The notes: generated from the letters alone by a model not told the origin. DNA of 62,142 nucleotides, filler included, from Hausera hauseri (GCA_046269625.1; 12 parts of 12 records of this genome joined end to end with filler, not necessarily neighbours in it), one strand, 5' to 3'; counted from the whole stretch's first letter, positions 8,251-52,062 are shown. Numbers and translations: made by a program.

Positions 8251-10925
8251 CATTCCGGCTTTTGAACGGCGTAATCCGACACTGGCAATCAACGTGTTCC
8301 GGTACAACACAATCGTAGAAATACCGGTGGATGAAGAAATTTAGAAAAATCCCATGTGGATATAATCTACCATAATCGGAACCCAAGTGGCCGCCCAATA
8401 AATATGTTGTTTTTGAAGCAAAAGGAAAATTTCCATTACGTTGCTGTGACAAATTTGAACAGACTGTTAAACATGGAACGCGTACACGGTGTAAATGGTG
8501 TCCCGTATATCTGCACGGATTTAGATCGGAAACAACATGGGAGAAACATGTGACTCTGTGCAGAAACAATTCCTCTGGAACCACAATGTACGTCATGCAC
8601 ATCAAACAGGAACTCAGGTTCACTAATTGGTCAAAAACAGACAGTCCGGCATATGTAGTATATGCCGATATCGAACGGCACAACATATATGACCAAAAAC
8701 ATGTTCCAATCGCCGTCAGTATGTTGGTTGTCATAATAAAAGCCGTATGTCAACCGCAATATTACGTTTTTCATGGGTGGAACTTTGTCCGAGATTTCCT
8801 CTATCAGTTGCAAACAATAGTATAAACGGAAATCGCACCTAGTACAGTAGAAATAGCAATAAACCTTTGATGTGGACAGATGACGATGAACGCATGACGT
8901 TTGTAGTCACAGATAAATATTACCTTTGTCACAAAATATTACCGTTTGATGCACAGGAATGGCTCGTACCGGATCACAACCATTTTACCGGTCGATATAT
9001 CAGTCGATATACCACAAGTTTCGAGGTTATGACTATCACCATATTCTGAAATGGGCCATACACGGATTTCCACACTGGGAACTATCCATATTTTCAACAA
9101 CGAAGGAGAAGTACCTGTCCCTATCGGCACTCATAAAAAGCTTCCAGGTACGGTTTCTTGACTCACTGCCGTTCCTCAATGAGTTTCTATGAAAGCTCGT
9201 AAGTGCCTTGCCAGATATGCCGATAACGCTGACACAGTTCCTTGCGCATACTGCACGCAGCAAAGGCATATTCCCATGACTTTGCTGTGTCGTACCAGCG
9301 GCTTCAGACAACAGATGAAATGCCGCCACAATGAACCGGAATCACAGAGGATGAGTACCGCAGTGATTAGGAAGCGTGGATAGAGCTCGGCTGCAGAAAC
9401 ATCTTGGATTATATGCGCCAGTACCTAAAACTAAACGTGTATTTGTTAGACGATGTGTTTCAGACATTTCGTGCTAAGGCGTTGGCGGAAGATAGGCTGG
9501 AGCCGCTAAACTGTTACTCTATACAGGGGATGAGTTGAGCATCGTCACTAATGTCGCTGGACAGGGGAAATTAAGCTGCTGCAAGACCCGAAAATATTGG
9601 TATTTGATGTTGGTATTCGTGGCGGCATGACATTTGTCAACAAACATCACGTAACCAGTGATGACGATTATACAATGTCAATGTTGTACATAGATATTAA
9701 TAACCTGTACGGCTGGGCGCTTATGCAACCCTTGCCGTACGGTTCATTTCAATGGGTAATGGACAAACAAGAACTGGATACATTGCTGGACAGTTTGCCA
9801 GCAGCAAACCAGATAGAAAGTAGCTAAGTCGGCTACCTAATGGAAGTCGATCTTTTGGTACCAGATAAGCTGCATGACACTCTGGACGAATTACTAGTGG
9901 CACCAATCAGCCAATGTCCGCCCAGCTCAAAAGTAAAGAAATTGCTCATGACGTATGAACCCAAATCGAATTACGTGGTTCATTGGCGTCTACTGCAGTT
10001 TTACATGCAGTTCGGTGTACTCGTCACACAGCTGCATAGTGCAATCCGCTTCAGTCAGGCGCCCGCATTCAAGGCGTACATTGATGGCAATTCAGAGGAA
10101 CAAGTCGCAGCTTGTACAGAGTTCGAAAACGATTACTACAAATTGAAAAATAATTCTCTCTATAGCAAAACAGTAGAGAACTTCAAAAAGCGACTCAATG
10201 TGCGCCTATGTAACAACGAAAAGCGGCTGGTTACGTACACCAGCAAGGCTCTGTTCAGGCGGTCAATGCACATTGCCGATGGATTAATTGCGGTGCTGTC
10301 AAACCTGGAAGAAATCGTACTGAACCGACCAAGCTATATCGGACAAGTGGTATTGGATCTGAGCAAGTTGCGAATGTACGAGTTCCAGTATCGAGACTTG
10401 GCACGTTACCAACAAATGTTCGACGGCTGTGAGATCAGTATCGTTGCCGGTGACACAGGCAGCTTTTTCCTTGAGCTGAAATACGTCAATCGCTACCAAC
10501 TGCTACCGCAAATGATGGCAGATGGACTACTGGACACGTCCACGTACTCGCAGAGTAATCCGCTGTATAGAAACTCCATAACGAAGAAAATCGGTTGCTT
10601 CAAGAATGAAAGTGAAGGCTGTGTTCAGTATCGAGAATGGTTATTCCTACGCCAAAAGTACTACAGTCTCCTGACGGACTGTGCACCGAAAATGCGCGCA
10701 AAAGACGTTCAGCTGGCCCAGACCGAAATCAACCACGGTGACTATCGCCATGTCTATGAAGAAGGAGGAGACGGAGGACAATCAAAGGCTGTTGTGCCAA
10801 AAATGATCATTCGATCGACTGAGCACCAGCCGTGTACGGTAACCAATTCAAAAGTTGCTTTATCATGCAATGATGATAAGCGTAAGTTGATGGGGCGGAA
10901 TAAGAGTTTGGCGTACGGACATTAG
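8251..10925 (+). pseudogene. polB: Polinton-type pPolB, copy 2
   Basis: FERRNPTLAINVFRY, YVVYADIE (Exo I), DHNHFTGRY (EndoVII-like insert), FLDSL, YIDINNLYG, KLKNNSLYSK, VAGDTGSF, C-terminal SLAYGH. Confidence 0.92.
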
Positions 10926-12977: not shown

Positions 12978-15900
12978 AAATGTTCGCAATACCCCATGTA
13001 CTGCGTCTCTCGGATACATGAGGGTGGACAATGTTACAAACAGATGGCACAGTATTATTCAATTGGGGAGGACACTTCCTTGTGTCCAACGTGTAATATT
13101 TCAATGCCCCAATGTCCATACGCCAACTTTTATGAGTTTCAAAAACATCATCTCGGACCGTTTACTCGGTCTAAGAAGATGATGCATGTGCATTGCTCCT
13201 TGTACCCTAGGTATTGTACTAGTAAAGTGCACAACGTTGATGGTTGCCATAGTACAATGGAGCAGTACTATGGCGCCACAACGATGCACGTTAAATGGGC
13301 TTACGTCTATTCCGGTTGTTTTATAGTTGATCAAATCAACTATGAACAATTTTATAATCAGCACAAGGACCACTTTAACCAGTTTCAGAGGTCCAAAAAG
13401 GAAATATTAATGGAGGCAGCAAAAAGCAGTATTCCCTCAACAAGCAGAAAACGTCAAGCATCAACAAGTATTGACGAATACCTGAAAAGCATCAATACAG
13501 AGCATTGGCAGCAGGAGCAGCAGCAGCAGTAACCGCTCATTATTATTAAGTATGACTTAAACATATCGTACGTGGACATAAAAGTAAACAAGTCGGCGAA
13601 ATCAGCAACTCAACTGAGGCATGTATCCTCTCAAGTGCGCAACCGGTTATAAACCGAAGTGGAGAAATTCAAACACCACAACTGCAAAGTGCAATATTAT
13701 GCACTTGCAGAATTTGAGAATCTGCAGGGTAACTGGAAACAATGGTACCTGCCACATCGAGCAGTTCCATATTCCAAAGATTTCATTGACGACATAGGCG
13801 AAAAGCTGGACGAAAAAATCGCCAACTGCACTGAAAAGTCCGTGGTTGGCGAATAATAAAAATTGTCACTCTCGGTTTTATTATAACAAAGTCTAGTGAC
13901 ATAATTTGCCTATCCGGACGTTCATTCATACCGACACCTAAAGCTCAAAAGCACTCTTATGCGGTAGTGAATTTAAAAAACACGGACGATGATTACTGTT
14001 TTATTTACATTATTCTGGTGGTATTAAAATGTGACGAAATGGACAGAAATAGTGCATATCATTCAAGTCATTATCAGCAGTATTTTTTCGAATTTCAATT
14101 CGACGAAAACTGGATGCTGATGAAACTTAAAACCATTCCAACATTTGAACGGCGTAATCCGACGCTGTCAATCAACGTGTTCCGGTACAATACCATAGTT
14201 GAAATATCGGCAGACGAAGTAATTTACAAGAGTTCATATGTGGATATAATCTGTCGAAGTCGGAACACGAATGGACGCACAGTAAATTTGTTATTGTTGG
14301 AGCAGGCAGAAAAATTTCATTACGCGGCTGTAACAAATTTGGACCGACTGTTGAACATGGATCACCATCAGTTTGTCGAAAAACAAATACGTTGGAAATG
14401 GTGTCCTACATGTCCGATTGGCTTCAGATTAGAAACCACGTGGGAAAACATGTGACGCTGTGCAGACAGAATGCATCAGGACCAACAATGTACGTCATGC
14501 CAGTCAAAAAGGAGCTGCGATTTAGTGACTAGTCTAAAACGGACAGTCAAGCATATGTGATATATTCTGATATTTAGGCAATGCTACCACGGCACGACGT
14601 ATACGATCAAAAACATATTCCAATTGNNNNNNNNNNCGTCGAAATGTTGGTTGTCCCAATAAAAGCTGCAGGTCAACCGCAGTATTACATGTTTCACAAC
14701 TGAAACTGGGTGCGTGAATTCCTGCATCATGTGGAAACAATAGTTGAATTGAAAATCGCACCGAGATATCGCAATAACAGCACAAAGCCCTCGGTTTGGA
14801 CAGATAAAGATGAACGCCTGACGTTTGCAGTCACAGAGGAATGTTAGCTGTGCCACAAAATATTACCGTTTGATGCGCAGGAACGACTCATACCGGATCA
14901 CGACCATTTTACCGGTCGATACGTGGGAGCAGCATGTAATTCATGCAATTTAGCGAGGCGTGTGTGGCCATTCCTGCCGGTGATCTTTCATAATTTCCGA
15001 GGTTTTGATTGTCACCATATACTGAAATGGACGATCAACAGATTTCCGCACTGGGAACTGTCTATAATCCCAACAACAATGAAGAAGTACCTGTCCCTGT
15101 CAGCACGCATAAACCGGTTCCAGGTACACTTCCTTGATTCATTGCAATTTCTCAATGAATCACTGGCGAAGCTGGTAAATGCCTTGCCGGACGTGCCGAT
15201 AATCTCAATGCAGTTCTCCGCACATATTGCACGCAGCAAAGGCATATTTCCATATGACTTTGCAACATCATATGACCGACTCTGGACAGCAGAGGAATTA
15301 CCGCCGCGGTGGACAGGCATCACAGAACTTGGATATCATAGAGCACAAGAATCTTGGACAGAGCCAGGCTGTAGAAACATGTTGGATTACATTCTCCAAT
15401 ATCTTAAACTTGACATGTACTTATTGACCGATGTGTTCCAGGAGTTTCGGGCGAAAGCGTTGGCTGAAGATAGGCTGGAGCCACTCAACCTTTATTCCAT
15501 ACCGGGAATGAGTTGGGTATCAGCTCTAATGTCAATGGATCGACATATTGAGCTTCTGCAAGACCCGAAAATGTACCGCATGTTCGATGTTGGTATTCGC
15601 GGCGGCATGACATTTGTCAACAAGCATCAGGTCCATGCTACCGATACCACATCATTGCTGTATATTGATATTAATAACCTGTACGGTTGCGCGCTTTCGA
15701 AACCCTTGTCGTACAGTTCATTCGAATGAGTTGTCAACAGACAAGATCTGGACGGCATAATAGTCAACCTACCACAAGCACACATGGCAGGCTCAGTCGA
15801 ATACCTGATGGAGGTCGATTTTGTGGTAGTAGATTAGGTGCATGACGTTTTCGACGATTTACTGGTTTCACCAATTAGCCAATGTCCATCGGGCTCGAAG

Positions 15901-16578
15901 GTGAGAAAGGTGCTTATGACTCATAAATCCAACCAAAATTACATAGTTCATTTCGACTGTTGCAATTTTACATTTAGTTGGGTGCACGCGTCACACGGCT
16001 ACATCGCGCAATCCGATTTGAACAGGCTCCCATATTCAAGGCGTATATAGATGAAAATTCGGGGAAACGAGCCGCAGCTTGTACAAAGTTCGAAAAGGAC
16101 TAATACCAGCTAGAAAACAATTCTCTGTATGGAAAACAGTGGAGAATCTGAAAAGGCGGCTCAATGTACGCCTATGCAATAGCGAAAAGCAGTTGGTCAC
16201 GTATACGAGTAAGGCGCAGTTTCGGTGGCCAATGCACATTGCCGATGGATTGGTTGCGGTGCTGTTAAACCGACATGAAGTCGTTCTGGACCGGTCAAAT
16301 TACATCGGACAAGTGGTATTAGACCTGAGCAAATTTCGAATGTATGAGCTCCAGTATCGCGATTTGGCACGTTATTGGCAAATGTTCGACGGTTATGAGA
16401 TCAGTATAGTTGCCGGTGATATAGACAGCTTTTGTTTGAGCTGAAAAACGTCAATTGCGACAAATTGCTCCGGCAAATAATGGCAGATTGACTACTGGAC
16501 ACGTCCAACTATCCACCGGATTATCCCTTGTACAGCAGCGCGATCACCAACAAAATTGGCTGCTTCAAGGTTGAAAGT
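12978..16578 (+). pseudogene. polB: Polinton-type pPolB, copy 3, including Cys/His-rich N-terminal extension; preceded by an intron (~12876-12977)
   Basis: One broken frame runs from KCSQYPMYC through NLKNTDDDYCF, FERRNPTLSINVF, DHDHFTGRYVGAACNSCNL, FHNFRGFDCH, KGIFPYDF, YIDINNLYG and VAGDIDSF. GTAAG donor and TTCAG acceptor. Confidence 0.92.
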
Positions 16579-20757: not shown

Positions 20758-23700
20758 ATTGGAGTAGAAGTTGGAATTGTATTAGGCGCAAGCGTGAAGG
20801 TGGAAGATGAAACAGAGGTGCTGGTGGAGAGAGGAAAAGAGATAGGAATTGAAGAAAAAAGAGGAGGAAATTGCGAAGCGGAAATGAAAGAGGTAAAATA
20901 CGATGTGTGAGGAGAAAGGGAGGACGAAAACTCCGAAGATAAGGAAGGTGTAAAAGGAGAAAGAGAGAGAGAGACAGAGAAGACGACGAAAAGAGGCAAA
21001 GCGGAAAAGAGCAGGAAGATGGAGAAGGCGAAGGAAAGTAGTTGGAAGGTGGTATACAAGAGGCTGGAATGATGAAAGCGGTAGATGGAGAGATTGGTGA
21101 AATCGAAGTGGTGTTTGGCAGAAGAGGTTTTGTAAAAGGAGAAAGCAAGTTGTCACCAGGGGATGGAGGAGTGTTAAAAGTCTTGAAGGTGCAAAATCGG
21201 ATGGAGAAAAAGAGGCTGAACTGTCCAAAAAAATTCAAGTAGAAGTCTTGGGAGGAAACGTAGGGAAAAGTGGATTAAGAAATTGAGCAGAGATGGAAGG
21301 TGAATTGTTGGATTGCTACGCGGCGTGTAAAGATGGTGGTGGAGAATTGGTTTCGATGGGAGACATATCGTCAATGAAGAAAACCTGCTTAGCGTTGTTG
21401 ATGTGGGCTGTTACTTCTTTGTCGTCCGTGAGAATGATGATGTTGTAAGAGTGTAAACAAATTACTTTGTAAGGGCTAACATACTGAGGTTGAAAACCAC
21501 ACGACGTCTGATTCTTCAGCCATACGAACATGGCAGTATATAAATCATTGGGTATGTAAAATTTATTTCCGTTTAATAGTCTACAAAATGAGTCGTTGCT
21601 GATCGCAACGAAGTGCCTCTGAGCCGCTTGTATGGTTTCGTCTGTAGGAATATTGTCCATCTCAGCCAGCTCGAATAATGATCTGATATAGGTGCCAAAT
21701 AATGCTTCTGCAGGTGAACAGCTTGTAGACGTAGATGGTGTGTTCTGCCAGCCAAGCAGAACGTACGGAAGGAGTGTGATCCAACTGCAATTGGACTCAG
21801 CAAGGATTTTGAGAGACGTTTTCGTTGTTCCGTGAAAACGTTCGAGAAACCCATTCGATTGGGGATGATATGGTGAGGTGTGCATGTGATTAATTTCCAA
21901 TCGATTGACAAGAGCTTTAAACAGGTTGGATTTAAACTGTGGGTCTTGGTCCGAAATGGTGTGGCGAGGTGATCCAAACCTGCTGATCCAAGTGCGGATA
22001 AAAACGTCTGCGATTGTTTCTGTGTTGGTGTTGCTAAGCGGGACAGCCTCTGGCCATCGTAAGAAACGGACCATCATTATGAGGATGAAATGATGACCGT
22101 TGTCTAAGGGTAGTGGGCCTACAATGTCAATGTGAACAGATTCAAAACGAGACGTGCAGGGAAAATAATATAGTGGTGGCTTTAAGTGCTTAGTAACTTT
22201 GTATTTTTGGCGTGCCACATACTGCCTAATCCATGCCTGCATATCAGAGCGCATCGACGGCCATACTACTAGGGGTTGTAAGAGTCGAAAAATGGCCTTG
22301 GCACCGGGATGATGCAACGAATAGATGTTGTTGAATGCTTCTTTTTGAAACGATTCAGAAAGGATGACTTTATGATTATTAGATTTGGAGGTGTCAAAGG
22401 CCACACCGTCGATGGAATTGCACGATTTAAAAGATTTAAGGATGTCAAGAGGTGGCTGGTTTTGTTGAAGTTTGGATTGAGGGAAAATTTGTGCAAAATC
22501 AATCGATCTGACCGATCGGGACAAAAAATCAGCTACTAAATTGTCGACTCCGTTTAGGTGCTTAATTTCAAAATTAAATGTGGACAAATACGATATTCGT
22601 TTCTGCTAACGTGGAGAAGACGATTTCATGGTGAGAATTTGAAGCAAGGGTTTGTGGTCCGTTTGTATTGTAAAGGTTCGTGCGGTTAACAGCTGCTTAA
22701 AGTGTTTAACGGCAAGGACCATTGCAAGCAACTCTCTGTCAAAGGTGGAATATCTTTGCTCTTGTGCTGTAAATTTTCAAGAGAAGAATTTTAATGGCAC
22801 ATTGGATCCATTTTTAACTTGGCGGAGGATAGCACCTGCAGCTGTTGTGGATGCATCCGTGGTTAAGAAGAGTTCTGCATGGGAGTAGGAATAGGCCAGG
22901 ATTTTCACGATTTTTAGATTATCTTTGAGGTGATCGAAAGCGTTGACTAGGTTGGCGGTCCACTGAATAGGCTGTTTTTTCTTGCCAGAGCTTAATGATG
23001 CAAATGGAGCGGTTAGAGTGGAGCAGTGTGGAATATGCTTATGAATAAAGTGCAAGGTTCCGAGGAAAGAACGTATCTCTGTTTATGTACGTGGTAGCTG
23101 TATGGTTTTGAGCTGTGTGATGAGCTCTGGCTGAGGTAAATGTCCGGAGGAGCTAATAACATATCCTAGGAAGTTGACCTTATGTTGGAAAATATAGAAT
23201 TTGTCCAAATTAATTTGCAAATTGTTTTGGTGCAAGCGCTGGACGATTAGACGTAAGTGTTCGGAGTGTTGTTTCGAGAAAGATGATGCAATTAGGATAT
23301 CATAAATACAGGGATAAGCAAAGTTTAAACCTAAGAGAACTATATCTATATGCCTTTGGAAGGTCTGGGAAACGCTACGGAGTCCAAATGGCATGAAAAG
23401 GTATTCGAAAAGGCCGAAATGTGTAATGACAGCCGTTTTCGGAATGTCTGATGGGGCCACCGGAATTTGGTGGTATGCTTTGTGTAAATCAATGCAGGAA
23501 AAGATGGTCGAACCATGGAGCCTGTGAAGGATGTGGTTGATTAATGGTAGAGGGTAGGCATCCATTGTTTTTATGATATTGAGTTGGCGGTAATCACCGC
23601 ATGCGCGAAAGGTACCACCTTTTTTGGAACCACATGAAATGGTGAAGACCAGTGGATTTGGATCTTCTGATTATTCCTGATCTTTCCAGTTCAAGAAACT

Positions 23701-25960
23701 CAGCCTCCACTGCCTGTCTGCAACGAGGCGATAGCGGGCGGACCTCCTGATGTATGGGTCTTTGATGTGCTGTTACTATGTGACGGAAGGTGGATTGATG
23801 TGGTATGAATGATTTGTCCTTTTGCAGCAGAGACGTTCAGGACGATGAAAATTTATCCGATGATGTAGATGCATCGTGACTGGATACAGCTGCGATATGA
23901 GTTATAGACGAGGTGCTGTGACTGGATGGTATTTTGTGCAGGATATTTGTGTTGAAGATGGTGTTTGCAGCTGTGCTATTAGTAATTGGTGCCTCGCAGT
24001 TGGCAATATCGTATTTGTCACCGTAGTAAAAATTTCTGTATATTGTATGATTATAAAAATAATTTAAATCAGAAGTCGTTTGCTTCAGTATTGACTTGTT
24101 GGAAGCGATCGCCGGAGTTGTCATCGAAATGCTGCTAATTTGATTAAGATTATTTTCGCACTTTAAGGAACATAGTTTGTAATTTACAAGTAAATTGTAG
24201 TGGGACAGAAAGTCTGGACCCAATATGGGTGTGCGTACATTGGCTTTTGTAAATTTCCATGTGAATGTGTTTGGAAAGTGTGGAAGTGTGAACATTAATT
24301 TGGTAACTCCACAAATTTGTGAAGGTTCACCGGACGCAGTGAACAGTTGCTTTTTTGAAGTGAAATTGTTTTGGATGTGTTGTGTTGGTGGCAGTAGAGA
24401 GATTGCTGCGCCGGTGTCTATAAGAAAGTTAATGTTTTGCTTTGTTGGAGTGACAACTGCTGCTTCCAACGTGAATACAGCAAAGGAATTGTGTCGGCTA
24501 TCTTTTTGCAGGTTGTTGCCTTTGCTAAGACATACTGTGTGTCCTAGCGGCGAAATCAATTTTTTGTAGTTGGTGAGTTTGGCCTACTGTGCTGTGTAAA
24601 TTTAGTAGTGTTGGTTTTATTGTGTGTATTGTAGTTACAGCCAAATAGGCATTTTTGTGCTTTTGTTCCAAATTTTGAGTGATAAATGCAAAGGATGTTG
24701 CTTGTATTAAAATCAAGGCAGTAAAATTTACAATTAATGCAGCATTTCTGAGCATTGTTACCAAATTTGTTATGATAATAGCAAATAGATGATCGCGCGG
24801 GCGAAGGCGATCGTCTTTGACGTTGATTAAATACATAGAGGAAGCAGCCCTAGAAAAACCCCGTTGAGGCAGCGTTAGGTCATTCAATTTTTCGTTTATG
24901 TTGTTAAGTGTCTTCTGTAAAATTTCATTTTCCGTGCATAATTGCGCAATTTGTTGCTGCAGCATTGAATTTTATTGTTGTTGGTTTGTTGTTAATGCTG
25001 CAGAGACAGTTGGTGTTGTTTGTGAGTGCAGTCTTTATATGCTTTGTCTGGCAATTCGGCTAGCTTGTCCAGAGTCGTGGAGTCTTCGACCATATTGAGC
25101 AAAGCTCTTATTTGAAGGGGCAACGCATTTAAGAAGTAGCGGCGAATAAGTTCTGGACTATGCTCAGATGTTACGCCAAGGGTGTTGAGGTGAGACAAGG
25201 ATGTGTGTAAGAATTCTAAAGGCTTCTGAAGGCCCATGGCGTTATCGTTGAAGAACCTTTGAATGATTGAATCGATTGAAGGCTCAGTAAGCTTGAGAAC
25301 TGCATTATAAAATTGAGTATATGGGTCAGTGTGATGAAGGATATCGATGATATTGGTAATTTTAGTTTTGATGGAAGCTGGCAAGTGGAAAAAGAGGCTG
25401 TTGGCTTTGGATAAAGAGTCGACGACGTTTTGTGATTGGAGCCAAAACTGGTGCAGTTTTAGCCAAGTTTGAGTTGAGTTTTGGCTGTCGAGGAAGTATT
25501 CTGTGCAGGGTGAATGAGTGAGGATGGTGTGTTATGTCGGGGCGTTGAAGCACTTTGTTTGGGTAAGTAAATGATGGGGATCTGTGGTTTGGTGAGTTTG
25601 TCCATGTTATCAATTGTGGGTGAAGAATTCATGCCACCACGGATAAGGAAGTGAATATGAAAGCAGACGCAAGTTGCAGAAGGTTCGAGGGGTTTAGCGA
25701 AAAGCACGGCAGATCCATTTTATGTGAGGTAGAAGTCAAGAGTGGAGTAAAGTAGAGACGTTGTGAATGGCCACGGTGTAGGTGTAGTGCTGTGTGTATA
25801 TATTTGTTGTTTAAAAAAAGGAAGATGGAGTAGGGAGAGGTGATATGCCTGGGGGTGTTGTGGGGCGGCAGCGAAAGGCGCCGCCAAACCCAATAGCAAG
25901 GGTGGGCGTCCGAAGCCATAGCCTCCCCTCGGTGGGTCCCAAATTTCGGGGTGACCGAAG
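20758..25960 (-). mobile_element. Near-complete internal region of a Ty3/Gypsy element (family B): gag, PR, RT, RH, IN; decayed
   Basis: FLIDTGA (PR), YPLPLI, IDLHKAYHQIP, MPFGL, TTDAS (RH), VHIDIVGPLP...YHPQSNG (IN). Pyrimidine-rich 3' tail; degenerate PBS-like TCGGTCACCCCG near 25950. Confidence 0.93.
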
Positions 25961-26495: not shown

Positions 26496-27894
26496 TTTTA
26501 CTGGTGAGAGCACCGCCACACTCAATGAGCAGTTTGGAAATCATACTTTTGTCTTGGTCGTCCGCTTGACTCTTCTCATCAACAATCGTTTGGCCAAATG
26601 TTATCTTTAATAACGTTCGAAAATGTCCTTGTCTTGCAAATACCGAAAAAGAATAATTCACTTGTCAAACAACGCATCGATGTCTTGATCACTAATACTT
26701 TTGTCCCTTGTTTCAGTTTGTCATCGATAAACAATGTCAGATATTCCGGTGATGGAAATTCTGGTTGATAAAAAGTTCAGAATCGGAATTGATCTGATTT
26801 TTGAACAGCTGATTGTTTGCTAAGGCGTTCGTCAACAAACCATTGGCACGATATCGCAAATAAATTTATTTTTGTATTTAATTCTGTGGAGGTTTATCAT
26901 CTACAACGATTTTCCGGCCCTACTCCCGTAGTAAACGACTGATGCAGATGCTCACTTTCGTCAGACCAGAATCAACTCGTTTTAATAAAGTATACATTAA
27001 TCTAATTTCCGAATACTTTTTATTGCTTAGCAAATGAGTCAGACCAGAATTTTCATTATTTACAATTCGCTCCAAATGGTTTTTGATTGATTCGTCGTTG
27101 AGAACTTCGATAATTTTCGATTCGGTTGTTGAATTGAGAAATTCACGAGCACGTTTCGATTCTTCTTCGATAATTTTATTCACTTGATATATACAAATTC
27201 GACGGATTTGCACTTAATAATCGATCACTCTACGATCGATAAAAATCCCTACTTTGATCCAAGAAAAATGTTTCGAAATCATTTTCGTAAATATTTAATT
27301 TATCAACACCTAATTGGACAAGCATTTTACAGGCATCGCGAAGTTGTTTCCGGGGTATGAAATCACCGTTTCGTTCTCGCTTAACCATATCCAACAATGC
27401 CGACCGCAAATGACAACGCATGGGACCGAAAAGTAACACCACATCGCGAAAGATAATCAATTCAGTATTATAAGCATTCGGTTTGTCTGTATAAGCAACA
27501 TAAATTCGATCCATGTACATGATAATATCCCTGATCATAAACATAGCGGTTGCATGATGTTTTGAACATCGATTTAAATGAGCCAAAAAGTTATTATTCA
27601 ATCTCTCGTGCACTTCATCTCTAATTTTACGCCTATGATCGGTAATAACAGCCTTGGTACCGTTATACAATTGCTCACCATTTTTTGTAACACCATTGTG
27701 TATGCATTTTGATATAATTCCTCAAAACTCAATCTGCTTTTATTTTTACGCTGTATTTCAATAATAGCTCCTTTTAAAACTTCCCAAATTTCCCAAACAG
27801 ATTGATCACTCATCGACGTAGGAAGTGGTTTTATACGCATTTTACACGGATTTGAATTATACGATGAATCTAATTTACGAATATTTCGGGACAT
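26495..27894 (-). pseudogene. CUL3: Cullin-3 N-terminal ~two thirds, intronless, decayed
   Basis: [65 protein letters not shown]. Stops and frameshifts present. Confidence 0.93.
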
Positions 27895-27965
27895 TCATGC
27901 AAGTATAAAACAGTAGTTTTGTAGAGACCAGGACGGTTTTAATTTGTATTAATGACGAAAAAATG

Positions 27966-28193
27966 TTACCTTGAAATGTACTCCGATACCAAATTGTGGA
28001 TATCCCATTTGTGCATGTACTTAAAGCCTGGTTCTATGCACTCAGAAACAGAAGATAAATCAGATACACAAGATTCCGTTTCAGAAAAGTTCTCCTGATG
28101 CAGAGTTCTTCTTTTGTTTTCGTGATTGAGCATAGAAAATTCCGAATCAAACTGAAATGAATGTCTGAGTAAATTCTCTGCTATTTCTATCAT
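27966..28193 (-). pseudogene. Orphan first exon of an unidentified host gene
   Basis: ATG-initiated ORF MIEIAENL...FKYMHKWDIHNLVSEYISR ends at a GTAAC donor-like site; no continuation found. Confidence 0.3.
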
Positions 28194-30632: not shown

Positions 30633-33600
30633 CTAAGTGCCCCTATTCTAATTTATCCAGATATGACTAAGCCATTTATACTAGCAATTGATGCAAGTAA
30701 TTATGGAGTTGGAACAGTACTGTCATAGAAAGGTGAAGATGGTAAGGAACATACAATTGCTTATGCGTCAAGAAAGTTAAACAAGCATCAAAGGAAATAT
30801 GGCGTTATTGAAAAAGAATTGTCAGCAGTAATATTTGCGCTAGAAGTGTTCTCATCTTACATTAGCAAAAATAAGCCTTTAGATATATATACCGATCACC
30901 GATAGTTACAGTGGCTGAAAAAGCATGAGAATCCTCAAAACGTCAGCCTTATACATTACACTTCCAATATAAACCGAGTACACGAAATGCGAATGTGGAC
31001 TATCCATCAAGTATGCCTCAAGAAGAAAACGAAAAGAAGTAAGAGCGGCGGTATGGAGCATGGATGGATCCATAGAAAAGATAAATGAGAATCAACGGTA
31101 AGATGAAAAGGTAAGAGCAATCAGGAACTTTATCCAAAGTAAAATAATACCCACGGATAGAGAATTAGCTCGTCACGTAGCCAGATTTGGTGATGCCTAC
31201 GAAGAAAAGGACGGATTTTTGTATTATATTCATCAAAATGGGCCAACACTAGTAATTGCAGAAAAGAATAGAGTAGTTTTATTAACTCAACAGCACTGTG
31301 TATTATTAGGTGGACATCAGTCAGTAAGAAAGACGATAAACAAGTTGAAAAGAAAATACTTATGGCCAACTATAACCCAACATGTTCAAAACTTGTGCGA
31401 TAGTTGTAAACTATGCGCCACTCGAAAGAATACCGGATCCAAATTTAAGGCTCCTCTGAAAGTATGGGATAATGCTCCTGCTCCATTCGAATTTACCGCG
31501 ATGGATATAACAGGACACTTACCATTAACAAGAAATGGAAATAGGTATATTCTCATGTTCATAGATTATTTCACTCAATTGGTAGTGGCTTTACCAATGC
31601 AAGACATGAAGGCAGATTATGGAGCCCCACGGATAATATTAACAGATCAAGCATCAAACCTAACCGGCAATGTGATGCAAGCCATATATGACATCATGAG
31701 AATACTAAAATTGCGGTCAACCCCCGGACACCGGGAAAATAACGGAATGGTGAAAAGATATTGGTGATTTGAAAAATAATGAAAAACAGTCGTTAGTCCT
31801 AGGCAAGATGACTGGAATGAGTATATTAATGCATGTGTCTTTGTGAACCGGACATCAGTGCACGAATCTACGAAGGAGACGCCATTATACATAATGTATT
31901 TAAGAGATCCTAGATTACCAATCGACCTGGACTTTAATGTGCGACCAACATCACATTTAATGGAGGTAAAAGAGTATAAACAATTAATGCAAGAATGGTT
32001 AAAATTAGCCTGAGTTAGTGAAGGATAATCAAAAAGATTAAAACTAAGTATAAAAAGTATTACGATGAGAAAACCAAACTACCTAAAGTTAAAGTAGGAG
32101 ATGAGGTGATGTTGTATACACCACTAAGTAAAAAGGGAAAAAGATCCAAATTAGACAGATCAAATAAAGGACCATATAAAGTAGAAAAAGTAGATTTCCC
32201 CAATGTCTACCTCAAGAAAGATCATGTGATATCCAAAGTTCACATCAATAGATGTAAACCGGCCGCTAAAGGAAATAAACTTAGGGAAGATGAACAAGAC
32301 TTTGTTAGGTGGATAGTAAGTAAATCAGAAGAGGCCTTTAACGTAAAATATGTTTTCTAGTACTAATTCTCGTGCTGATGCCTTGTATATTAACGCAAAT
32401 GACTGATCAAGAGATACAAAAAGCAAAGATTCGTCATTCAATTGCCATATCTGAGTACTTGCTATTAAAGAATATACGATGTCAAATTCAATATACTAAA
32501 ACAGGCCAGAAATGTGTGAAGTTTTCCGTAACAACCCAAATGCCACTTCAATATATCGTCGGAATCCAGATCAGACACTGGCAGCCTAATTTGAAGAATC
32601 CTATGGAACGTAAATACGACTATGTATTAAGTCATTGGAAAATAGAAACAGACGGCATAATCGAACAATCATGTATGAACGAAATATATGATACAGTAAT
32701 AAAAACAAGGTGACTATCGAAGTCAATATACAAGAAAAATAAGATCCATATCCATCCGTAACCGGCATGGAATGAATGAAACCCAATTGGGCATAATAAT
32801 AATCGGTTAAATATTAATTAGGTCCATTGGATTCAAAAGTGGACAATGTTGTATTGAAGTGACTAGTAAAATAAGATTAGAGCACATATGATGGATAACG
32901 GTACACATTAAAGAAGAATCGTGTAAAAAATTACCGATTAAATGTTACATAACCCATGAGCAACAGCAGACTTGTAACGTAAGGAAAAGTCTATAACGTA
33001 AAGTATACGTTAACACAAAAGGAATGCGGGTTACTCCGAAATAAATTAAGGGCAAATGGTCTAACAATGTACGATATGAGTTCTATAGAATTTGGCGAAA
33101 AAGAAATAAACGTCACGACACCGCCATCCAATTCTTCGCTAATAAATAGCCATAATAAAAGTAACGAAAGGGAAATGACTATTTTGATTCAACCCCACGC
33201 CTCATATTATCGACAAAGCGCTTCATTTGGGAGAATGTAACTATAACCACTGCTCCAACGACTGATAATTGCAATCAAGCCACACTTGGACTTCTATAAA
33301 GTGAAATTCACCTGTAAAATCCAGCAGGCGATAGTAGACCAAGGTATAATAACCCATGATGATCTGATAGTCCCTTGTGCTGCCTTAACTCCGAATACTA
33401 AGTATACAGTTACACAACATCTCTACGATAACAACAATAAGGTAACGTCTACAAAAATTCTCACAGCATTCACTAAAATGTAACATACAAAACCCCAATA
33501 GAGAAAAATTAATGTTAAGGACATAACAACTTTGAAACCTTTACGACCAGCATACAAACATTCACGTATAGGAATGATATTAATAGGTTCCAAAGTACCT

Positions 33601-34653
33601 ATAACATTTATAATAATGGTATTAGTAACGATCAAAATAATAATTTGCCAACGAAAAAGAAAACAAGGCTGGGTTCGCATTAATATGCGTGATCTAACGA
33701 ATCCGTTAGACACAGACAATCCCAGCTGACGGTTAATCATAGGAAATGCTGTCTAACCAACCTCAGACACAGAGATAACCCAATTTCATCTGGTTACTTC
33801 CCCATATAAATTCTATGAAAATAAAACCATGACGATTACCAAAATGATGTGTATGATAACCGTTGTGTTGTGTTTAAGTACCGTTTTTGAAAAAACATTG
33901 ACTATCTCATTTCTAATATCCGCATCAACGTTGCATCCAATCCAGTCGATCACTAGATCCAAGCATTGGTATAGCAATGCGAAGAACCATCTCATTAACG
34001 AGAATTCAACCTATTAATACCATGTGATTCACAACGAATATACAGTCAGCCTAAATTACCAACAGACACAACAAATACCAAATAACCTTAAAGGTGATAG
34101 TATGGCGAATAGATCATTAGCTCTACTACAAATAACGAAAACAACCTCCTTCTATGTTACTGATATAATCTTATTCCTAGAACAATTCCAGTAAATGAAT
34201 ATCTACTGCATATCTGGACAGTTCCACATCAAAACCACCGATAAGAAAACACGGATAAAAGAAGACCTGATCAATATAGATCCAGAACACGGTATCGCAT
34301 TCGACTTTACCTTCATCAAAAGGAACACGTTGAAAATTCGATCTCTCACCATTCGAATAATGTTCGTCTTCGAGATAATAAAAGAAAAAAAATTTCTACC
34401 CAGTTTACCAGAAAGGAAGTATTTTAACCTTCCGGAACCGGAGTACATCAAATACAAAATGACTGCATAGAGAAGAATTGAAAAAGTATCTTATGATGAC
34501 TTGGACACAGCAGCTGTGAACCTAGCCTGTGACCAATGGAATCAGTTACAACCGACTGAAGCCTCAATAATCACTCTCAGTGGAAATACCCTTTTCTATA
34601 GTATCATCACCCCGAGGTAACGCATTAATAACTTTGATACTCATCTAACGGGT
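30633..34653 (+). mobile_element. Ty3/Gypsy element (family C): RH, IN, env-position membrane-protein ORF and further 3' coding remnants
   Basis: FILAIDASNYGVG, EKELSAV, GGHQ..K..YLWP..C..C, AMDITG, GPYKV. After these come a signal-peptide-like FLVLILVLMPCILT and a TM near 33570-33650. Confidence 0.88.
32350..33729 (+). pseudogene. Env-position type-I membrane protein with FN3/Ig-like domains (decayed)
   Basis: Signal peptide, Cys-containing beta-rich segments, ALTPNTKYTVTQ (FN3-like LxPxTxY), TM followed by QRKRK; homologous to 37180-38590. Confidence 0.65.
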
Positions 34654-34753: not shown

Positions 34754-37700
34754 GTAAAGGAGGCTTTAGACAGACTATCAGGACCGAAATAGTTTACCAC
34801 TATCAACTTACAATCGGGATACTGGCAAGTGGAAATCGAAGAAGGAGATCGATACAAGATCGCGTTCAAAACACACGATGGCGTATACGAATTTAATGCC
34901 CTTCGGTATCACTACCGGACCAGCTATTTTCACTAGAATGATGAACAAAATGCTTATGGGACTCGGTCATGCATTTGCGTACTTAGACGACGTGATTATA
35001 GCATCAAAAACGGAAGAGGAACACTTAAAGGACATTGAGGATACGCTCATGCACCTGGAACAAGCAGGGCTGAAATTAAATCCAAAGAAATGTAAATGGG
35101 CACAAAATGTAGTATCATACCTCGGATATATAGTAGGAGAAGGAGGATCAAAACCAGATAAATCTTTGCTAAATAAAATATCTGATTGCATGGAGCTTCA
35201 GAATCAAAAAGAGTTAAGACATTGGTTAGGCTTATGCGGATACTATGCCACTTACGTACCAGACAATTCGAAAATTAACGCGCCATTATACCGACTGCTT
35301 AAGAAAAGGACTAAATGGAAATGGACGAAAGTGGAGCAAAAAGCATTCTATGAAATGAAGAAAATTTTGACGAGCGAACCAGTTTTAAGATATCCTGATT
35401 TTAACCTGTCATTCATCATTAAAACAGATGCAAGTAAAGAGGGCATAGGATATGATTTAGATCAGAAACGAGAAGATGAAGAATTAGAACATCCAATAGC
35501 CCATAGAGGACGTTTGTTAAAGAAAGCAGAACAAAAATAAGCAGTCACTGAATTAGAAACGTTATCCGTAAATGAAGCACTACGACACTTTAATGTCTAT
35601 ATTTATGGACAAAGGATCGTAATAGTAACCGACCACAAAGCGGTTACGACATTGAAAGGACGAGCTAATAACCCTACATGTAGATTGAATCGTTGGATTG
35701 AAGAAATTTCTCAATATAACATCAAATTCCGATATAAACCAGGCAACAAACACGTCGACGCCGATGCACTATCAAGACTTAAGACAAAAACGAGCGCAAT
35801 CACCACAAATAAAAAGCCACAACTCGAACAACTGATCGAACGACAAAGAACTCTAACAATGAACAAGACGATTTGAATCACAGCCAAACAAGCTAAGAAT
35901 ATGATTATTCAGAAAATTGTTGAGTTCGCACAAAATTTCAAAATGGCCGAAGGACGACAATTGAAGAAGCATTGACAAAAACACGGACATAAATATCGCG
36001 CTTCGAACCAAAATAATTTACTATATTACGAACGAAAAGGAAGAAAGCTAATGGTCATTCCAAAAGGGTTACGCACCGAAGTACTCATGGCTGAACATGA
36101 TTCGTATTTAGCTGGACACATGTCTTGGAAGAAGACATTGGAAAAGATATTAAATAAATACTACTGGCCAAGCATTTATATTGATGTAAAAAATTGGGTA
36201 AGTGCTTGCGAAGTTTGCGCAACAAAGCAAAAGAAAACGAAAAGCTACATAGCAGAATTAAAACCCATAAACGTGCCATACAGACCCATGCAAGCTATAT
36301 CTATGGATATAGTAGGACCCCTGCTTAAAACTCTCAAAAATAACAGATATATTCTACCATGCGTGGATCGGTTAACGCACTTTGTCGAACTAGTAGCGCT
36401 ATTAGATCAAAATACAGAAACTTTAGCCGACACAGTGGTAAGGAAAATCATCTACAGATACGGACCACCAGAACAAATCTTAACGGATAGAGGAAGAAAT
36501 TTCACAAGCGAATTATTCGAAAAAATTATCAAAATATTCGAAATTGAACGTTTAACCACTACCGCGTACCACCACCAATGTAATGAAATGGTTGAACGAA
36601 TGAACGCAACAGTCATTCGGATACTATCAACAGTAGTGGCCAAAGATTAAAAAGATTCGGATGAATTTCTAGAAGGAACACAGTTCGCGATTAATACAAC
36701 TCCACATCCAGCCACGGGATTCACACCGTTCTTCATGATGTATGGACGAGAGGCAATCTTACCTACAGATCTAGGTATGACACCGTATGAAAAGAACCTT
36801 GAGGATCTAGAGCAAAACTTTGCCGAAGTCTTACAGACAAGATTGCAAAAGTGTTGGGAAGTCGCAAAAGCATTATTACTCGAATACCAGGAACAATTTA
36901 AAAAACAATATGATAAAAAGACTAAATCCCATGACCTGAAAAAGGGAAACTGGGTTTATATACATTACCCAATCACGACGAAACATACATCCTTGAAATT
37001 AACGCGTACCGGAAGAAAACCACATGAACTCGTCCGTACAACATCGACCACGGTCTATATTAATAAAAACGGTAAAAAAGAAATCATGTCAATACAAAGA
37101 GTAGTTAAGACAGATATAAGACCAACCAAACGCTACAATTTAAAACAGCGAGAAGCCAAGACATCGGCAGTTGTCATCAGACCGGTATCTTACGCTCAGA
37201 TAATAGTATTGCTGCTCTAACGCCAAAGTCTAACGCCCAATGGTGGATCGATGAAACTTCGTTAAGTGATATATATGGAATGAGGAAAAGAGGACTAAAA
37301 CTTTTACCGGCAAGGAAGGAAATTCCAGAACACAAATCAGAACAAAAAGACAAAAAATTCTTGCGAGCAATAAAATTAGATTATTTTTCGCCAGAAGTCC
37401 CATGTGTCGGGTTTAGGTTACCAGGACCATACGCAGGGAAAATTCAAATACTATTTCATAACCTATTAAGCCAAGCCGAATCTGATTCTATATATGAACC
37501 AGAAGACGATACAGCTTGCTGCAACGTAGAGTATGGACATTTTTACACCCTCAGCTATCGTGCATATTTACCGAACTGTAATGAATTACACTTTGAAATC
37601 AATCTGAAGTCATATTTAGTTATACCACAAACGTATGAAGATTATATTAATATAGAGACGGAAGACTTGTTTTAATCCATTGATCCATTAAAACGAATGC

Positions 37701-38820
37701 TAGAAGAAAATGTAGCTAGTATAACGGAAAACCCAAGGGACAAATGTATCCAGATAAACACAAAAGGACGATTAATTAAGGAACAAGTAATCACAGTTCA
37801 ATTCACAAGAGAGGACAAGGAAGCTCCTAATCAACAATACTGTCAAATTGACGTCGAAAGACCGAATAAGTGTTGTAAGTTACCTCCAGGACATAAATAT
37901 CGAATCCGGTTAGACCTATATGAAATTCGACCAAGTCAGCCGAGTATTTATTTAGGAAGTTATAAATTTGAAAATCTAATCCAAGGAATTTCACCTCAAA
38001 TAACGACAAGTAGAATTACGACTACAAAAACGAATGTGACTACTTCAACTTCTACCAAAATCCTTCAGACAAGTGGATTATCTCAGAAGAATCTAGAAAT
38101 AATTCCGATAAAATATTGGAAACAACAACATGAAATAACGTTCATCGTGGAAGAAGCACTTAATTACTATGTAGAAATAAGCTGCCGAACATTATACAAT
38201 AATCAGAAAATCACATTGGCCAAAGGTAACTATCGAATCAAATGCACCTACTTGAAACCTAAAAACGACTACATAATACAAATAGATGCAGAGAACAAAC
38301 AAAGTAGAACATTTACGGTACAAACCTTAAGTGAGATTTTCTTAACTGAACCACCAACTAAGGAGGAGACGGGAGACGAAATGACGACTACCATTAAAAC
38401 AAAAAATTTAATTAAATGGACATCTTTGTCATTAATATCGATTATTGGAACGTCAATATTTGCTCTCATAATTTTGATTGCGTTTTGTCCATTGACTGCC
38501 TAAAACTGTTATAATAAGCGTCATAAAACAACTGAGAGGGAATTAGGGGCGATTGTACCACAGGATGAAATCAATAATGTAATAATTTGACAATTACAGG
38601 TTGGGTTATTCCACCATCTAACAAGGAATTGGTTCAGATTTAAAACAATACTTTGTTATAGGATTGACACTTATTTCATATTTTTCTTCAGAATGGTAAG
38701 TACGAACAGCCAAATTAGTGTCGACGAATTCCTACGAGGATACGCAACAGTCTTCATCCCAAAGACGAAAGCCATATACAGAAGAATAAATGACGCATTA
38801 CAAACAGAAACGTACGCCGA
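34754..38820 (+). mobile_element. Ty3/Gypsy element (family D): RT, RH, IN, env-position ORF, start of a fourth ORF
   Basis: MPFGI, AYLDDVII, IKTDAS, HVDADALSR, HD..AGH...YYWP..C..C, SMDIVGPL, TDRGRNF. Confidence 0.93.
37180..38590 (+). pseudogene. Env-position type-I membrane protein: signal peptide, ~3 beta-sandwich/FN3-like domains, Thr-rich linker, TM, short tail
   Basis: ORFs 37280-37675 and 37697-38503 share one frame (single TAA between them). Motifs LPPGHKYRIRL and LKPKNDYIIQI; TTSRITTTKTNVTTSTST; TM SLSLISIIGTSIFALIILIAFC. Confidence 0.72.
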
Positions 38821-40501: not shown

Positions 40502-41891
40502 TTCATTAATACGGAATTACAATCGGTTGAATTTATTTATCATTCCAAAAAGTGAACCAGATAATGACAGATATCTGTGCAGTATTTGTGAAGATATTCT
40601 CATGGATCCATGTCAGTCGATCGATGGCATTCGATATTGCTCTACATGCATTTCAGATATCGACAAAGATGACAGTTCATTGAAACAGTTTATGAAAGAC
40701 AGAGCAATTGAAAAGGAAATATTAAATTTATATATCCGTTGTATTCATTAAAATTGTACAGAAATCGTTCAGTTCCGATGTCTCACTGACCATTTAATCG
40801 TATGTCCATATCGAAACGTGTATTGCAAATACTGCAAGGAAAATTATCAATTAATACACGAGAATGATCATATGCAGAATCAGTGTCAATTATAACCAGT
40901 CAATTGCAGTTTTTGTGGATTGTCGATGACGAGAATAGATTACGAACGCCATCATTTGAATCCGAATGGTGACATGGACAGTATTTGCATCAAATGAAAG
41001 GGAATTTGTCCATTCAATTGCAGTATAATAGAACATGATAGTATTTTGCAACATTTATCCAACTGCGAGAATAGATTGGAAGATTGCACACTGAAACGAT
41101 TGGGTTGTGAGAAAAGACTGAAAAGACGAGATCTGAACGATCATTTGTATTTTGAATCAAGCGGTCATCTCCGAATGGTCATTGATGAAATAATTCGAAT
41201 GGAAACGGAAAACGAACAGTGTCGGAAATTATTTCGCGAAAAAGAACAGGAAATCTGTCGAACTGTCGTCCAGCTGAAACAAATAAATACGGAATTAGAA
41301 TGTCAAGTAGATTGTTTGAAAAAGGTCGTTGAAGAGAAGTCCAAAGAACTCCATACAGTGAAGTTGGAAATAAACAAGTACAAAGAATTGTTTGAAGAAG
41401 TGAATTTCATCGATAGTTTAACGAGGTCACTAAATGTTGACGGGGAATTCAATTGGACTGTGGAGAATATTCGAGAGAAAATTAGCAAAGCCCAATCTGA
41501 TGGACAGAATTGTTTGACGAGCGAGCCGTTTTATACGAAACCGATGGGTTATCGAATGCATTTAAAAATGTATCCTAATGGAGATGGAAAAGGGAAAAAT
41601 ACGCATTTATCCGTTTATTTCAGTTTGATGAAAGGCGATTTTGATGAGCGACTGTCGTGGCCATTCAAACAGCCGGTCACGTTGAGAGTGAAGAATAAGC
41701 GAAAGGAACAGGATGTCGTTGTTAGCATGAGACCAGATGATAACGATAATTGTTATGGTAGACCGTTGACGGAATCAAATATTGGTGCTGGATTGTCAGA
41801 ATTTGTACCGTTAACGGAGTTATTGTATCGCGATGATTTTTTGCACAATGGGGCAATCATCATTTCAGCTTCTGTATCGAACAATTTCTAA
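40502..41891 (+). pseudogene. TRAF: TNF receptor-associated factor (degenerate RING, TRAF zinc fingers, coiled coil, MATH)
   Basis: YLCSICEDILMDP; SEPFYTKPMGYRMHLKMYPNGDGKGKNTHLSVYFSLMKGDFD..LSWPF. One frame with stops at 40749, 40893 and 40995. Confidence 0.9.
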
Positions 41892-48419: not shown

Positions 48420-48800
48420 AACTTGTCAGGCTTGGTGCCGATATATTGTTCGAAAAGAACTCACCTGTGGAACTCAAACAGCTGTTCGTCGATTGTCAAC
48501 CACTCATTGGACACATAGACGTCTCGCAGCTTCTTGATAAATGCGCTCGTAATTTCTCTCACTGGTGCCAAAGGGTCTTGTTTGTCCCATTGTAGTGAGT
48601 CGTCAAATCGCATAGCTGATTTGATCTGCAGAAAGCGTTCCATTGACATTGTGTCTCTACAAATAGGACTTCCATCACTTGTAGACCACATGTCTTCAAC
48701 TGTACGATACTTCGCTTTAAATGCCCCATGACTATTAGGAGACCAACAAAAGCTTCCAATTCCACAAGATCCACTGTCTTCCAAACTTTGCGTTTACTTG
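48420..48800 (-). mobile_element. piggyBac transposase fragment
   Basis: ELEAFVGLLIVMG, TMSMERFLQIKSAMRFDD, DPLAPVRE, LTIDEQL..F. Confidence 0.85.
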
Positions 48801-50227: not shown

Positions 50228-51596
50228 GAACGACAGATATAATACTTGTCGGCATTTACCTTTGACATAAAACATATTCATTGGGTTAATAATTTGGATG
50301 CCGACTTTTTATCTAGGTCGGTTAATTCGATTAATTTTTCACCGATTTTTACACAAGCTCAACTTCAACAGAACGAGCTACCTCAAGACATGCTTAATTC
50401 TTTCAAGTCTTGAACAATTGTTAACTGCGTGGCTTTAGACACTTCCAAACCAGGTTATTCCATATTAATTCTCTCACTATCATTGCAAAGGCAAGCATTT
50501 AATAGCGTACATTGGCTACACCACCCTGGTGCTAAAGCCACTTTTCCTTTACTCCATAGACAAGTAATACAGCCGTCAATGCGTCACTGCATATCGCGTT
50601 TAGAGTACGTGCATATTGATATTGTTGGCCCTCTTCCTCCAGATAACGGCCATCAATTTATTCGCACCATGATGGACCATTCCTCACGATGGCCAGAAGC
50701 CATCCCTCTGCGGAGCACAAACACCGATACCATAGCTGACGTTTTTATTCGCACATGGATTAGCAGTTTTGGATCACATCGCTTCATCATCACGGACCAG
50801 GGTCCACAGTTTGAATCCAACCTGTTCAAATCTCTTGTTAACCTATTGGGGATCCATCACATTCCTACTACGCCTTACCATCCCCAATCGAATGGCCTCC
50901 TAGAACACTTCCAACGAACATTGAAAACGTCACTAAGAATCCTGGCAGAGTCCAACACTAGTTGGACGCACCTTCTTCCGTTTGTTCTGCTTGGCTGGCG
51001 TAGCACTACGTCTACTTCTACGGGATGTTCACCTACTGAAGCCTTATTCGGAGCTCCCGTACGACCATTGTTCGACCTAACTGCCCTAGACGACACTCTT
51101 ACAGATGAAACGATACGAGCAGCGTAAAATCAATTCTTCACGGTCAGAAAAGATTCGTTCGGCAGGATATTTCACAAAGACAAAACATATTTACCCGAAG
51201 ACATGTATTTAGCAAAATTCATATGGCTAAAAAATTAGACGCCGTGCGGTTTTCAGCCGCGGTATCTGGGGCCCTATAAACTGATACAGTTGCATTCACA
51301 TAATACTGCTATCTATAAAGACGGCAAAGAACTTACAGTACATATTATCAACTTAAAGCCCGCCTTCTTTGTCGACGACACTTCACCAATCGATACGTCA
51401 ACCTCTTTTCTCACTCCTGCGCTTTCTGCTCTTCCTTTATCCGTTGCTAAACCAGTTTCACCTCCTCCTTCTTCCTCTATTTCTGCTTTATCATTTTCCA
51501 CACCTTCTACTTCTATTCCTATTTCTCTTCCTTTATCTATCTGTCCCTCTGTCTCATTTTCTACTTCTACTCTTTCGCCTAACACAATTCCAATTT
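50228..51596 (+). mobile_element. Gypsy family B integrase and 3' tail, second copy with internal deletions
   Basis: VHIDIVGPLPPDNGH...YHPQSNGLLE; colinear with the reverse complement of 20760-22600. Confidence 0.9.
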
Positions 51597-52062
51597 CTGA
51601 ATACGGAAATTCTTTTGGAGCAACATTTAATGATATAATATAAAGTGATAAATCTTTTTGAGGATAATAATGTTGCAAATTTTTCGAAGCTGATATTTCG
51701 ATCTTATTAAGATCTTCGTCAGAGCACTATGTGTTTCTTTTATATTAGTGTGTACAAATGATCTTAATTTTATCCTNNNNNNNNNNNNNNNNNNNNNNNN
51801 NNNNNNNNNNNNNNNNNNNNTTAATTAATTAANNNNNNNNNNNNNNNNNNNNNNNNNNNNNNNNNNNNNNNNNNNNCGTTTGTCTACTGTTTACAATGAA
51901 AGCAAACCGGTTGGAACAAATTTGGTCGCTGGCTTCATTGGACGTTTGCCTATTGTTTATATAATGGCAAGCCGGGTGGTACATTGTTTACAATGAAAAT
52001 AAACAGATTTGACCAAATTTGGTATAAATATGGATGTCATTACATTTCACTTTGTCTCTAAA

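Follow-up and report, generated by a model that had tools for sequence, protein, structure and literature searches.

We analyzed a 62,142-nucleotide stretch of DNA from Hausera hauseri (GCA_046269625.1; hereafter the window), in which 12 contigs of 4–10 kb each are concatenated with N-spacers. Two neighboring contigs hold decayed copies of Ty3/Gypsy retrotransposons, element A on contig 7 (30633–34653) and element B on contig 8 (34754–38820), and directly behind the integrase of each lies a gene for a membrane protein whose predicted domains have the fibronectin type III (FN3) fold. Both contigs are about 4 kb long and terminate within their elements; all coordinates given for the two elements are on the + strand.

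The gene behind integrase in two decayed Gypsy elements

Pfam matches place the pol domains in the order typical of Ty3/Gypsy elements (Metaviridae), RNase H–integrase in element A and reverse transcriptase (RT)–RNase H–integrase in element B. The RNase H of element A is truncated by the contig start (30633–30902; RT_RNaseH E 1.5e-26), and the zinc finger and core of its integrase (31102–32019; Integrase_H2C2 E 7.7e-14, rve E 8.4e-5) occupy a frame with 4 stops vs. 34 and 22 in the remaining two. The SH3-like C-terminal part of this integrase lies in a different frame (32022–32357); its SH3_Tf2-1 match is under the cut-off (E 0.043), and tblastx matches it to the integrase tail of element B. 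Element B keeps RT, RNase H and integrase at 34770–37217 (RVT_1, RT_RNaseH_2, Integrase_H2C2, rve). The two integrases are 32% identical over 255 residues, DNA similarity never extends beyond 14–16 bases, and each is the other's best match among 8 integrases (133 bits; runner-up 121 for B and 58.5 for A).

The gene that follows has one layout in both elements: a signal peptide, three Cys-bearing FN3 domains together with a Ser/Thr linker, a single membrane anchor and a basic tail. For element A, an earlier note on this DNA had drawn a single ORF (open reading frame) at 32350–33729. All 12 of the motifs it quoted are present on the + strand (in element A, KCVKF at 32510, IQIRH at 32564, QCCIEVTS at 32844, WITVHI at 32892, KCYI at 32940 and ALTPNTKY at 33382, with partners on contig 8 at 37400–38249), and the order it gave for both contigs holds, from RNase H and integrase through a hydrophobic N-terminal segment and ectodomain to a transmembrane helix (TM) and basic stretch. 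The single ORF does not stand: several stops interrupt it and the motifs are spread over three frames, so that no fewer than two changes of frame are required. The ATG at 32350 does not share its frame with the hydrophobic segment and was rejected as the start of an open frame. The two contigs are separate, as the note said, because the window consists of contigs joined by N-spacers, but they share one window and probably one genome.

The broken pieces of the element A gene remain coding-like, with 0 stops in the 123 codons of 32342–32710 (9.4 expected) and 2 in the 159 codons of another piece (10.7 expected). A signal-peptide-like hydrophobic segment at 32348–32404 (hydropathy peak 2.4 over 19 residues, no in-frame ATG) is followed by a probable, broken first FN3-like domain that contains the expected motifs (32470–32760) and a second with stops inside, recognized by its pairing with domain 2 of element B's protein and its relatives (family B; 32826–33100); the limits of both are approximate. 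A Ser/Thr/Asn-rich linker (33112–33170), which aligns with its Ser/Thr-rich counterpart in family B, leads to a third FN3 domain of six predicted strands in an unbroken frame (33250–33477), assigned by fold and by pairing with family B domain 3, and the gene closes with a TM helix, basic stop-transfer stretch, short tail and stop (33595–33729; hydropathy peak 2.35). An R-x-K-R run at the end of the domain 2 frame is ambiguous and sits at a frame change.

The gene of element B (37241–38590; 3 stops in 450 codons vs. 34 expected) comprises a helical N-terminal part, three FN3-like domains, a Ser/Thr linker, a TM (38432–38488) and a tail. Its signal-like segment (37160–37217) lies in the pol frame, at the integrase end, so that a pol–FN3 fusion and an overlapping start are both possible for this element. 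A HMMER scan of 1.84 billion representatives with the open frame of element B returned two proteins, both unnamed one-member clusters from ENA. The first, P0002, is intact at 479 amino acids, with a signal peptide, an ectodomain of ~390 residues, a TM, a basic stretch and a Tyr-x-x-Ile end; the second, P0003 (189 amino acids), is a C-terminal portion. Over 440 residues P0002 and the element B protein show 31% identity (E 4e-60), and nine Cys columns of the ectodomain are common to both. At the hydrophobic end of the element B pol frame, 8 of 12 residues are identical to residues 12–23 of the P0002 signal peptide, shortly before which P0002 has its own Met. The tails of P0002 and P0003 agree at 17/28 residues and both end in Tyr-x-x-Ile.

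Further searches widened this set little. Sequence searches found no relatives of element A's own protein, and word-index searches returned none of 2,313 candidates for P0001, only P0002 itself among 3,340 for P0002, and none of 114 for the stretch from domain 3 to the tail of element A compared with longer proteins. No related locus emerged when the family B alignment was scanned against viral, metagenome and prokaryote genome contigs or the integrases against viral contigs; the integrase scan of metagenome contigs gave four loci (27–28% identity), none with a frame matching the FN3 profile. Phage records contained nothing matching P0002 or P0003.

Several observations tie the gene to its element. 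The signal segments adjoin or overlap the pol end in both contigs, neither contig has a gap or long terminal repeat (LTR) between integrase and signal segment, and the FN3 gene is as decayed as pol in each. A public run, X1, which may itself be the source of the window, holds 49% of sampled words and is the sole holder listed, with no RNA holder on record. On contig 7 lie 3,685 of its contigs, spanning 30/30 bins, and since 2,344 of these are <90% alike the gene is multi-copy and diverged. Some of the run X1 pieces listed fall inside the FN3 gene, and one joins its tail to the frame downstream (ORF4, below). Depth in this run differs between pol and the FN3 gene but was given no weight, since genes cannot be ranked by contig depth.

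Fold and probable kinship of the two proteins

Predicted structures reveal an FN3 fold in both proteins, which the earlier note had overlooked. The model of P0002, built from a three-row alignment, has a mean pLDDT (predicted local distance difference test) of 50, with ~70–86 in domain 1, ~56–66 in domain 2 and <50 in domain 3, preceded by an N-terminal helix of ~40 residues. Foldseek matches it to tandem FN3 structures (101 PDB chains at E ≤ 0.001, best 1.2e-5), its best viral structure match is also an FN3 protein, and VIA gives an FN3 domain as the best match of domain 1 (Z 7.5, root mean square deviation (rmsd) 3.0, 85 aligned), under that tool's caution level of 8. Domain 3 of element A, folded alone without an alignment, forms six strands (pLDDT 75.6, best of five models) and matches an FN3 domain of fibronectin in VIA (Z 9.4, rmsd 2.3, 75/76 residues aligned, the first strand lying outside the folded piece), with 32 chains at Z ≥ 8; Foldseek gives TM-scores of 0.57–0.80 among the matches listed (best E 0.008, none <0.001). 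The confidently modeled domains are thus predicted to be small FN3 β-sandwiches and not a class I or class III fusogen fold. Pfam fn3 at its curated cut-off is not reached (P0003 scores 13 bits vs. 25), with no hit at all for P0001, P0002 or the element A pieces; in an atlas look-up the best named family is fn3 for both P0002 (0.85) and element A domain 3 (0.89), leads only at <0.9.

Are the two genes also related by descent? The earlier note's alignment of the two proteins is borne out in part by profile alignment with shuffled controls: a whole-length, frameshift-aware alignment reaches z 7.7–8.0, above 60/60 shuffles and 84/84 real decoy tiles of the window. Its score was equaled by 0/70 shuffles at each block size of 3, 30 and 90 bases, and the alignment stays above 70/70 shuffles with P0002 alone and without Cys reward (z 2.6–6.8), although removing the Cys rewards lowers z to 2.6–3.7. 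Of 6 domain orders the native one scores highest (43; the others reach 29 at most), and the pairing is domain-specific. Element A domain 2 pairs best with family B domain 2 (z 5.1, 3/4 Cys in register) and domain 3 with domain 3 (z 5.4, both Cys in register), so that 5/6 Cys columns of domains 2–3 are in register. The domain 3 pair scores 46, whereas element B domain 3 scores −33 and −4 against its own domains 1 and 2; family B domains 1 and 2 are repeats of each other (E 4e-4). When 72 frames were searched with a profile of three family B proteins, element A domain 3 plus TM was the top non-self hit (E 2e-4; best reversed decoy 0.32), and hhalign aligns the TM and basic stretch of element A to those of family B (E 0.0018).

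The segments that the earlier note had aligned fare unequally against shuffles, with domain 2 (z 2.1–5.0) and domain 3 plus TM (z 6.8–9.9) standing above them and domain 1 not (z 0.3–0.9); the domain 1 match of KCVKF to PCVGF was dropped as stand-alone evidence, being at chance level. The two observations whose absence the note had named as fatal to its case, a significant alignment and a common fold, were both made. On these comparisons the two genes probably share common descent, and we infer long-term selection on the FN3 gene from the intact, diverged P0002 and the conserved cysteines, both window copies being dead.

Weighing the readings

The reading we prefer, at a probability of roughly 0.45, is that the Ty3/Gypsy copies on contigs 7 and 8 are dead, belong to animal elements, and have as the product of their third gene a type I membrane glycoprotein with three Cys-bearing FN3 domains and a role in adhesion or attachment. 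An ancestral gene would go back to an old capture from the host, of a gene for an FN3 receptor or adhesion protein, and would have persisted as the pol sequences drifted apart to 32% identity; we consider it likely that a single such gene was captured and retained. Its product would go to the plasma membrane and act in adhesion or attachment: a cell expressing the element, or a budded particle, would be tethered to its target, for example in the germline, with membrane fusion supplied by something else, and the basic stretch and C-terminal Tyr motif of the intact relatives may handle sorting or capsid contact. Given a common origin, we somewhat favor such a tethering role. Ectodomains made of FN3 units in tandem and raised on a Ser/Thr-rich stalk bind ligands or other cells; they are not known to fuse membranes. 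That adhesion would aid spread between cells is suggested by analogy with sORF2 of 412/MDG1 elements, a precedent for env-independent transfer by a membrane protein in the accessible text of 10.1101/2025.03.14.642691.

A number of results weigh against this reading. Sequence likeness between A and B is low: tblastn does not link the two FN3 genes (E ≥ 2), identity on the optimized path is ~17% (72/420, 65/375), and hhalign gives E 0.0018, 0.12 (the second FN3-like domain of element A) and 0.5, with probabilities of 14.8, 0.5 and 0.1%. In a local version of the frameshift-aware test z falls to 2.3–3.6 and one decoy tile outscores the real pair (40 vs. 38). Domain 1 of element A shows a weak z of 2.9 with family B domain 2 and 1.6 with domain 1; 0/3 of its Cys columns are aligned, and the automatic path departed there from the note's frame. 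The FN3 domain of human Tie2 scores 18 bits against the family B profile (best of 177,635 sequences) vs. 9.7–13.1 for element A domain 3 plus TM, no invertebrate FN3 receptors being among the controls, and part of the likeness is therefore generic to FN3; that both elements keep the same protein, as the earlier note had it, is likely from the whole-length alignment and common fold, with the higher score of Tie2 as a point against it. The integrase tree (8 rows, without named references) leaves A and B at an open fork, not resolved as sisters. The confident folds cover different domains, 1–2 in family B and 3 in element A, the latter confident in just 1/5 models, and family B domain 3, under pLDDT 50, is FN3 by sequence alone (Pfam fn3 E 0.12, Tie2 FN3 E 0.003). 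Finally, P0002 and P0003 are known here from protein records alone, and among 8 run X1 pieces listed of 3,734 none joins integrase to the FN3 gene.

It is possible, though we do not favor it, that the protein is instead a receptor decoy or host modulator (a ligand sink, interference with signaling through the Tyr tail, or a block to superinfection) with no part in particle transfer. Viral FN3 receptor decoys exist, the layout is receptor-like, structural neighbors include cytokine receptors and receptor phosphatases, and P0002 and P0003 keep the Tyr-x-x-Ile C-terminus in tails with 17/28 identical residues; on the other side, no receptor is closer than fibronectin itself, and the tail of element A does not end in the Tyr motif.

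Two independent captures of host Cys-bearing FN3 ectodomains of receptor-phosphatase or cytokine-receptor type, each placed behind pol and alike only convergently, at the level of fold, seem rather unlikely. The low identity, the Tie2 score, the unpaired domain 1 and the open fork in the integrase tree all suit this explanation, as do the CD45 FN3 domains among the listed structures of highest identity to element A domain 3 (19%) and the independent ORF3 captures that the accessible part of PMC5408684 records for rotifer elements. Yet convergence would also have to yield equal domain count and order, an equal linker position, similar total length, a TM at equal distance, 5/6 Cys in register and domain-specific pairing, all of which fit one ancestral gene.

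A two-gene envelope, with attachment assigned to the FN3 protein and fusion to a second subunit encoded by a downstream frame, is doubtful. Element A carries such a frame, ORF4 (33829–34653), which begins 100 bases after the FN3 stop with an ATG and signal-like hydrophobic start, is truncated by the contig end, and has 275 residues visible; with 4 stops vs. 18 expected (P 5e-5) it is a real, decayed coding frame. The run X1 contig that links ORF4 to the FN3 tail is a second copy of the arrangement, and contig 8, too, has a stretch of 76 open codons after its FN3 gene (38591–38820), the start of another ORF or chance, in which a pyrimidine-rich acceptor-like site near 38690 has an ATG and a donor-like site a short way beyond it. 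But the visible ORF4 residues match no fusogen in Pfam or PDB sequences, nor indeed anything in Pfam, PDB sequences, PHROGs or IMG/VR (PHROG hits at E 0.004–0.07 to families listed as unknown were taken as chance), and ORF4 and the contig 8 frame show no likeness by eye.

We consider it highly improbable that the FN3 protein represents a divergent Env able to fuse membranes, for all that it has the env position, a signal peptide, a TM, a modeled N-terminal helix of ~40 residues and, in element A, the R-x-K-R run, and that class II fusogens carry one FN3-topology domain beside the anchor (accessible text of PMC9094657). It has three FN3-type domains in tandem and lacks an elongated fusion domain, and neither P0002, P0003 nor the element B protein contains an R-x-K/R-R site or an internal 19-residue hydrophobic stretch that might serve as a fusion peptide; there is no fusogen among the fold matches listed, which by itself does not exclude one. 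On its predicted fold the protein is not a viral fusogen, and we reject the label env in that sense; the earlier note's "env-position" holds for the location directly behind integrase. Flanking host genes or passengers outside the elements are a similarly remote prospect: neither short contig shows an LTR or polypurine tract and P0002 and P0003 are known here from protein records, but the signal segments overlap the pol end in both contigs, the alignment is uninterrupted by introns, decay is the same as in pol, and run X1 holds diverged multiple copies.

Window context and place among Gypsy third genes

Elsewhere the window holds further decayed Gypsy elements and one DDE_Tnp_1_7 transposase fragment (1–3990, −; 21316–25531, −; 50414–51643, +; 48461–48793, −). 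The other Gypsy elements do not match the FN3 profile, and the integrases of contigs 6 and 10 are 58% identical. Decayed DNA polymerase B fragments, which we take to be Polinton-like, lie at 4092–5797, 9828–10925, 13835–16444 and 52929–55221 (Pfam DNA_pol_B_2 in 3/4 tested). An unbroken TRAF-type frame (40998–41891, +; zf-TRAF, MATH) and an intronless, frameshifted cullin fragment, probably a processed pseudogene (27230–28000, −; Pfam Cullin E 2.4e-34), indicate an animal host. A short, secreted-looking protein with heptad-like Leu/Val/Gly-rich repeats is encoded at 61550–61990 (−), with no confident Pfam family.

Comparison with known systems is drawn from the accessible portions of the sources. 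Like errantivirus Env, the FN3 protein comes from an invertebrate third gene behind pol, has a signal peptide, an ectodomain and a TM, and has been retained while pol diverged deeply; unlike it, it has tandem FN3 domains and neither cleavage site nor fusion peptide, where errantivirus ectodomains are F or gB fusogens, and "fibronectin", "FN3" and "immunoglobulin" do not occur in the main text of the errantivirus Env paper. Bdelloid rotifer LTR elements carry a non-env ORF3, including a GDSL esterase, a DEDDy exonuclease and small TM ORFs, that was once mislabeled env from its TM and similar generic features (PMC5408684). This is likewise host-derived cargo in the env slot, common to several families, but it consists of enzymes or TM proteins of 210–230 amino acids, and the portion available does not mention FN3. 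sORF2 and FAST-like proteins are element-encoded, single-pass membrane proteins with a basic stretch after the TM (10.1101/2025.03.14.642691). sORF2, however, has 60–210 amino acids, is myristoylated and has an ectodomain of ~30 residues, as opposed to ~460–480 amino acids, a signal peptide and three folded domains here; measured against the class as a whole (60–210 amino acids, an N-myristoylation motif, an ectodomain of 10–50 amino acids), P0002 stands apart with 479, a signal peptide and ~390 residues. The retroelement envelope protein Gc of the nematode Atlas virus also has an FN3-topology domain beside its anchor, but as domain III of a class II fusogen (PMC9094657), whereas the FN3 protein has three FN3-type domains and no domains I/II.

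The top structural and profile matches are animal FN3 proteins (fibronectin, Tie2, CD45, NCAM2, gp130), with which the FN3 protein shares fold and type I topology. It differs from animal FN3 receptors in its low identity (≤19%), in falling under the Pfam fn3 cut-off (best E 0.12), in having no cytoplasmic enzyme domain and in being encoded by a retroelement. Among the papers listed by full-text literature searches none was found to describe an FN3 protein as LTR-element cargo, and where FN3 is mentioned once or twice (in one listing, by 8 of 19 papers) no title concerns such cargo. Subscription papers, supplements and Repbase notes lie outside this scope, and prior mention is possible; "fibronectin" does not occur in the accessible text of PMC13524379, PMC5408684, PMC6431247, PMC8220671 and 10.1101/2025.03.14.642691. 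The FN3 surface protein looks like an undescribed kind of retrotransposon cargo within the known class of captured Gypsy third genes.

Most of the known env-slot genes in invertebrate Gypsy elements encode virus-derived fusogens, small FAST-like proteins or captured enzymes. A receptor-like FN3 protein in two families whose integrases are 32% identical would add a class of cargo, one overlooked by searches baited with F or gB Env, and the intact P0002 allows adhesion, decoy and fusion models to be distinguished experimentally. More tentatively, an old animal Gypsy lineage may spread between cells not by a virus-derived Env but by a captured FN3 tethering or receptor-binding subunit, possibly together with a downstream fusion gene. 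If true, such elements would have a third way of becoming infectious, next to Env capture and sORF2/FAST proteins.

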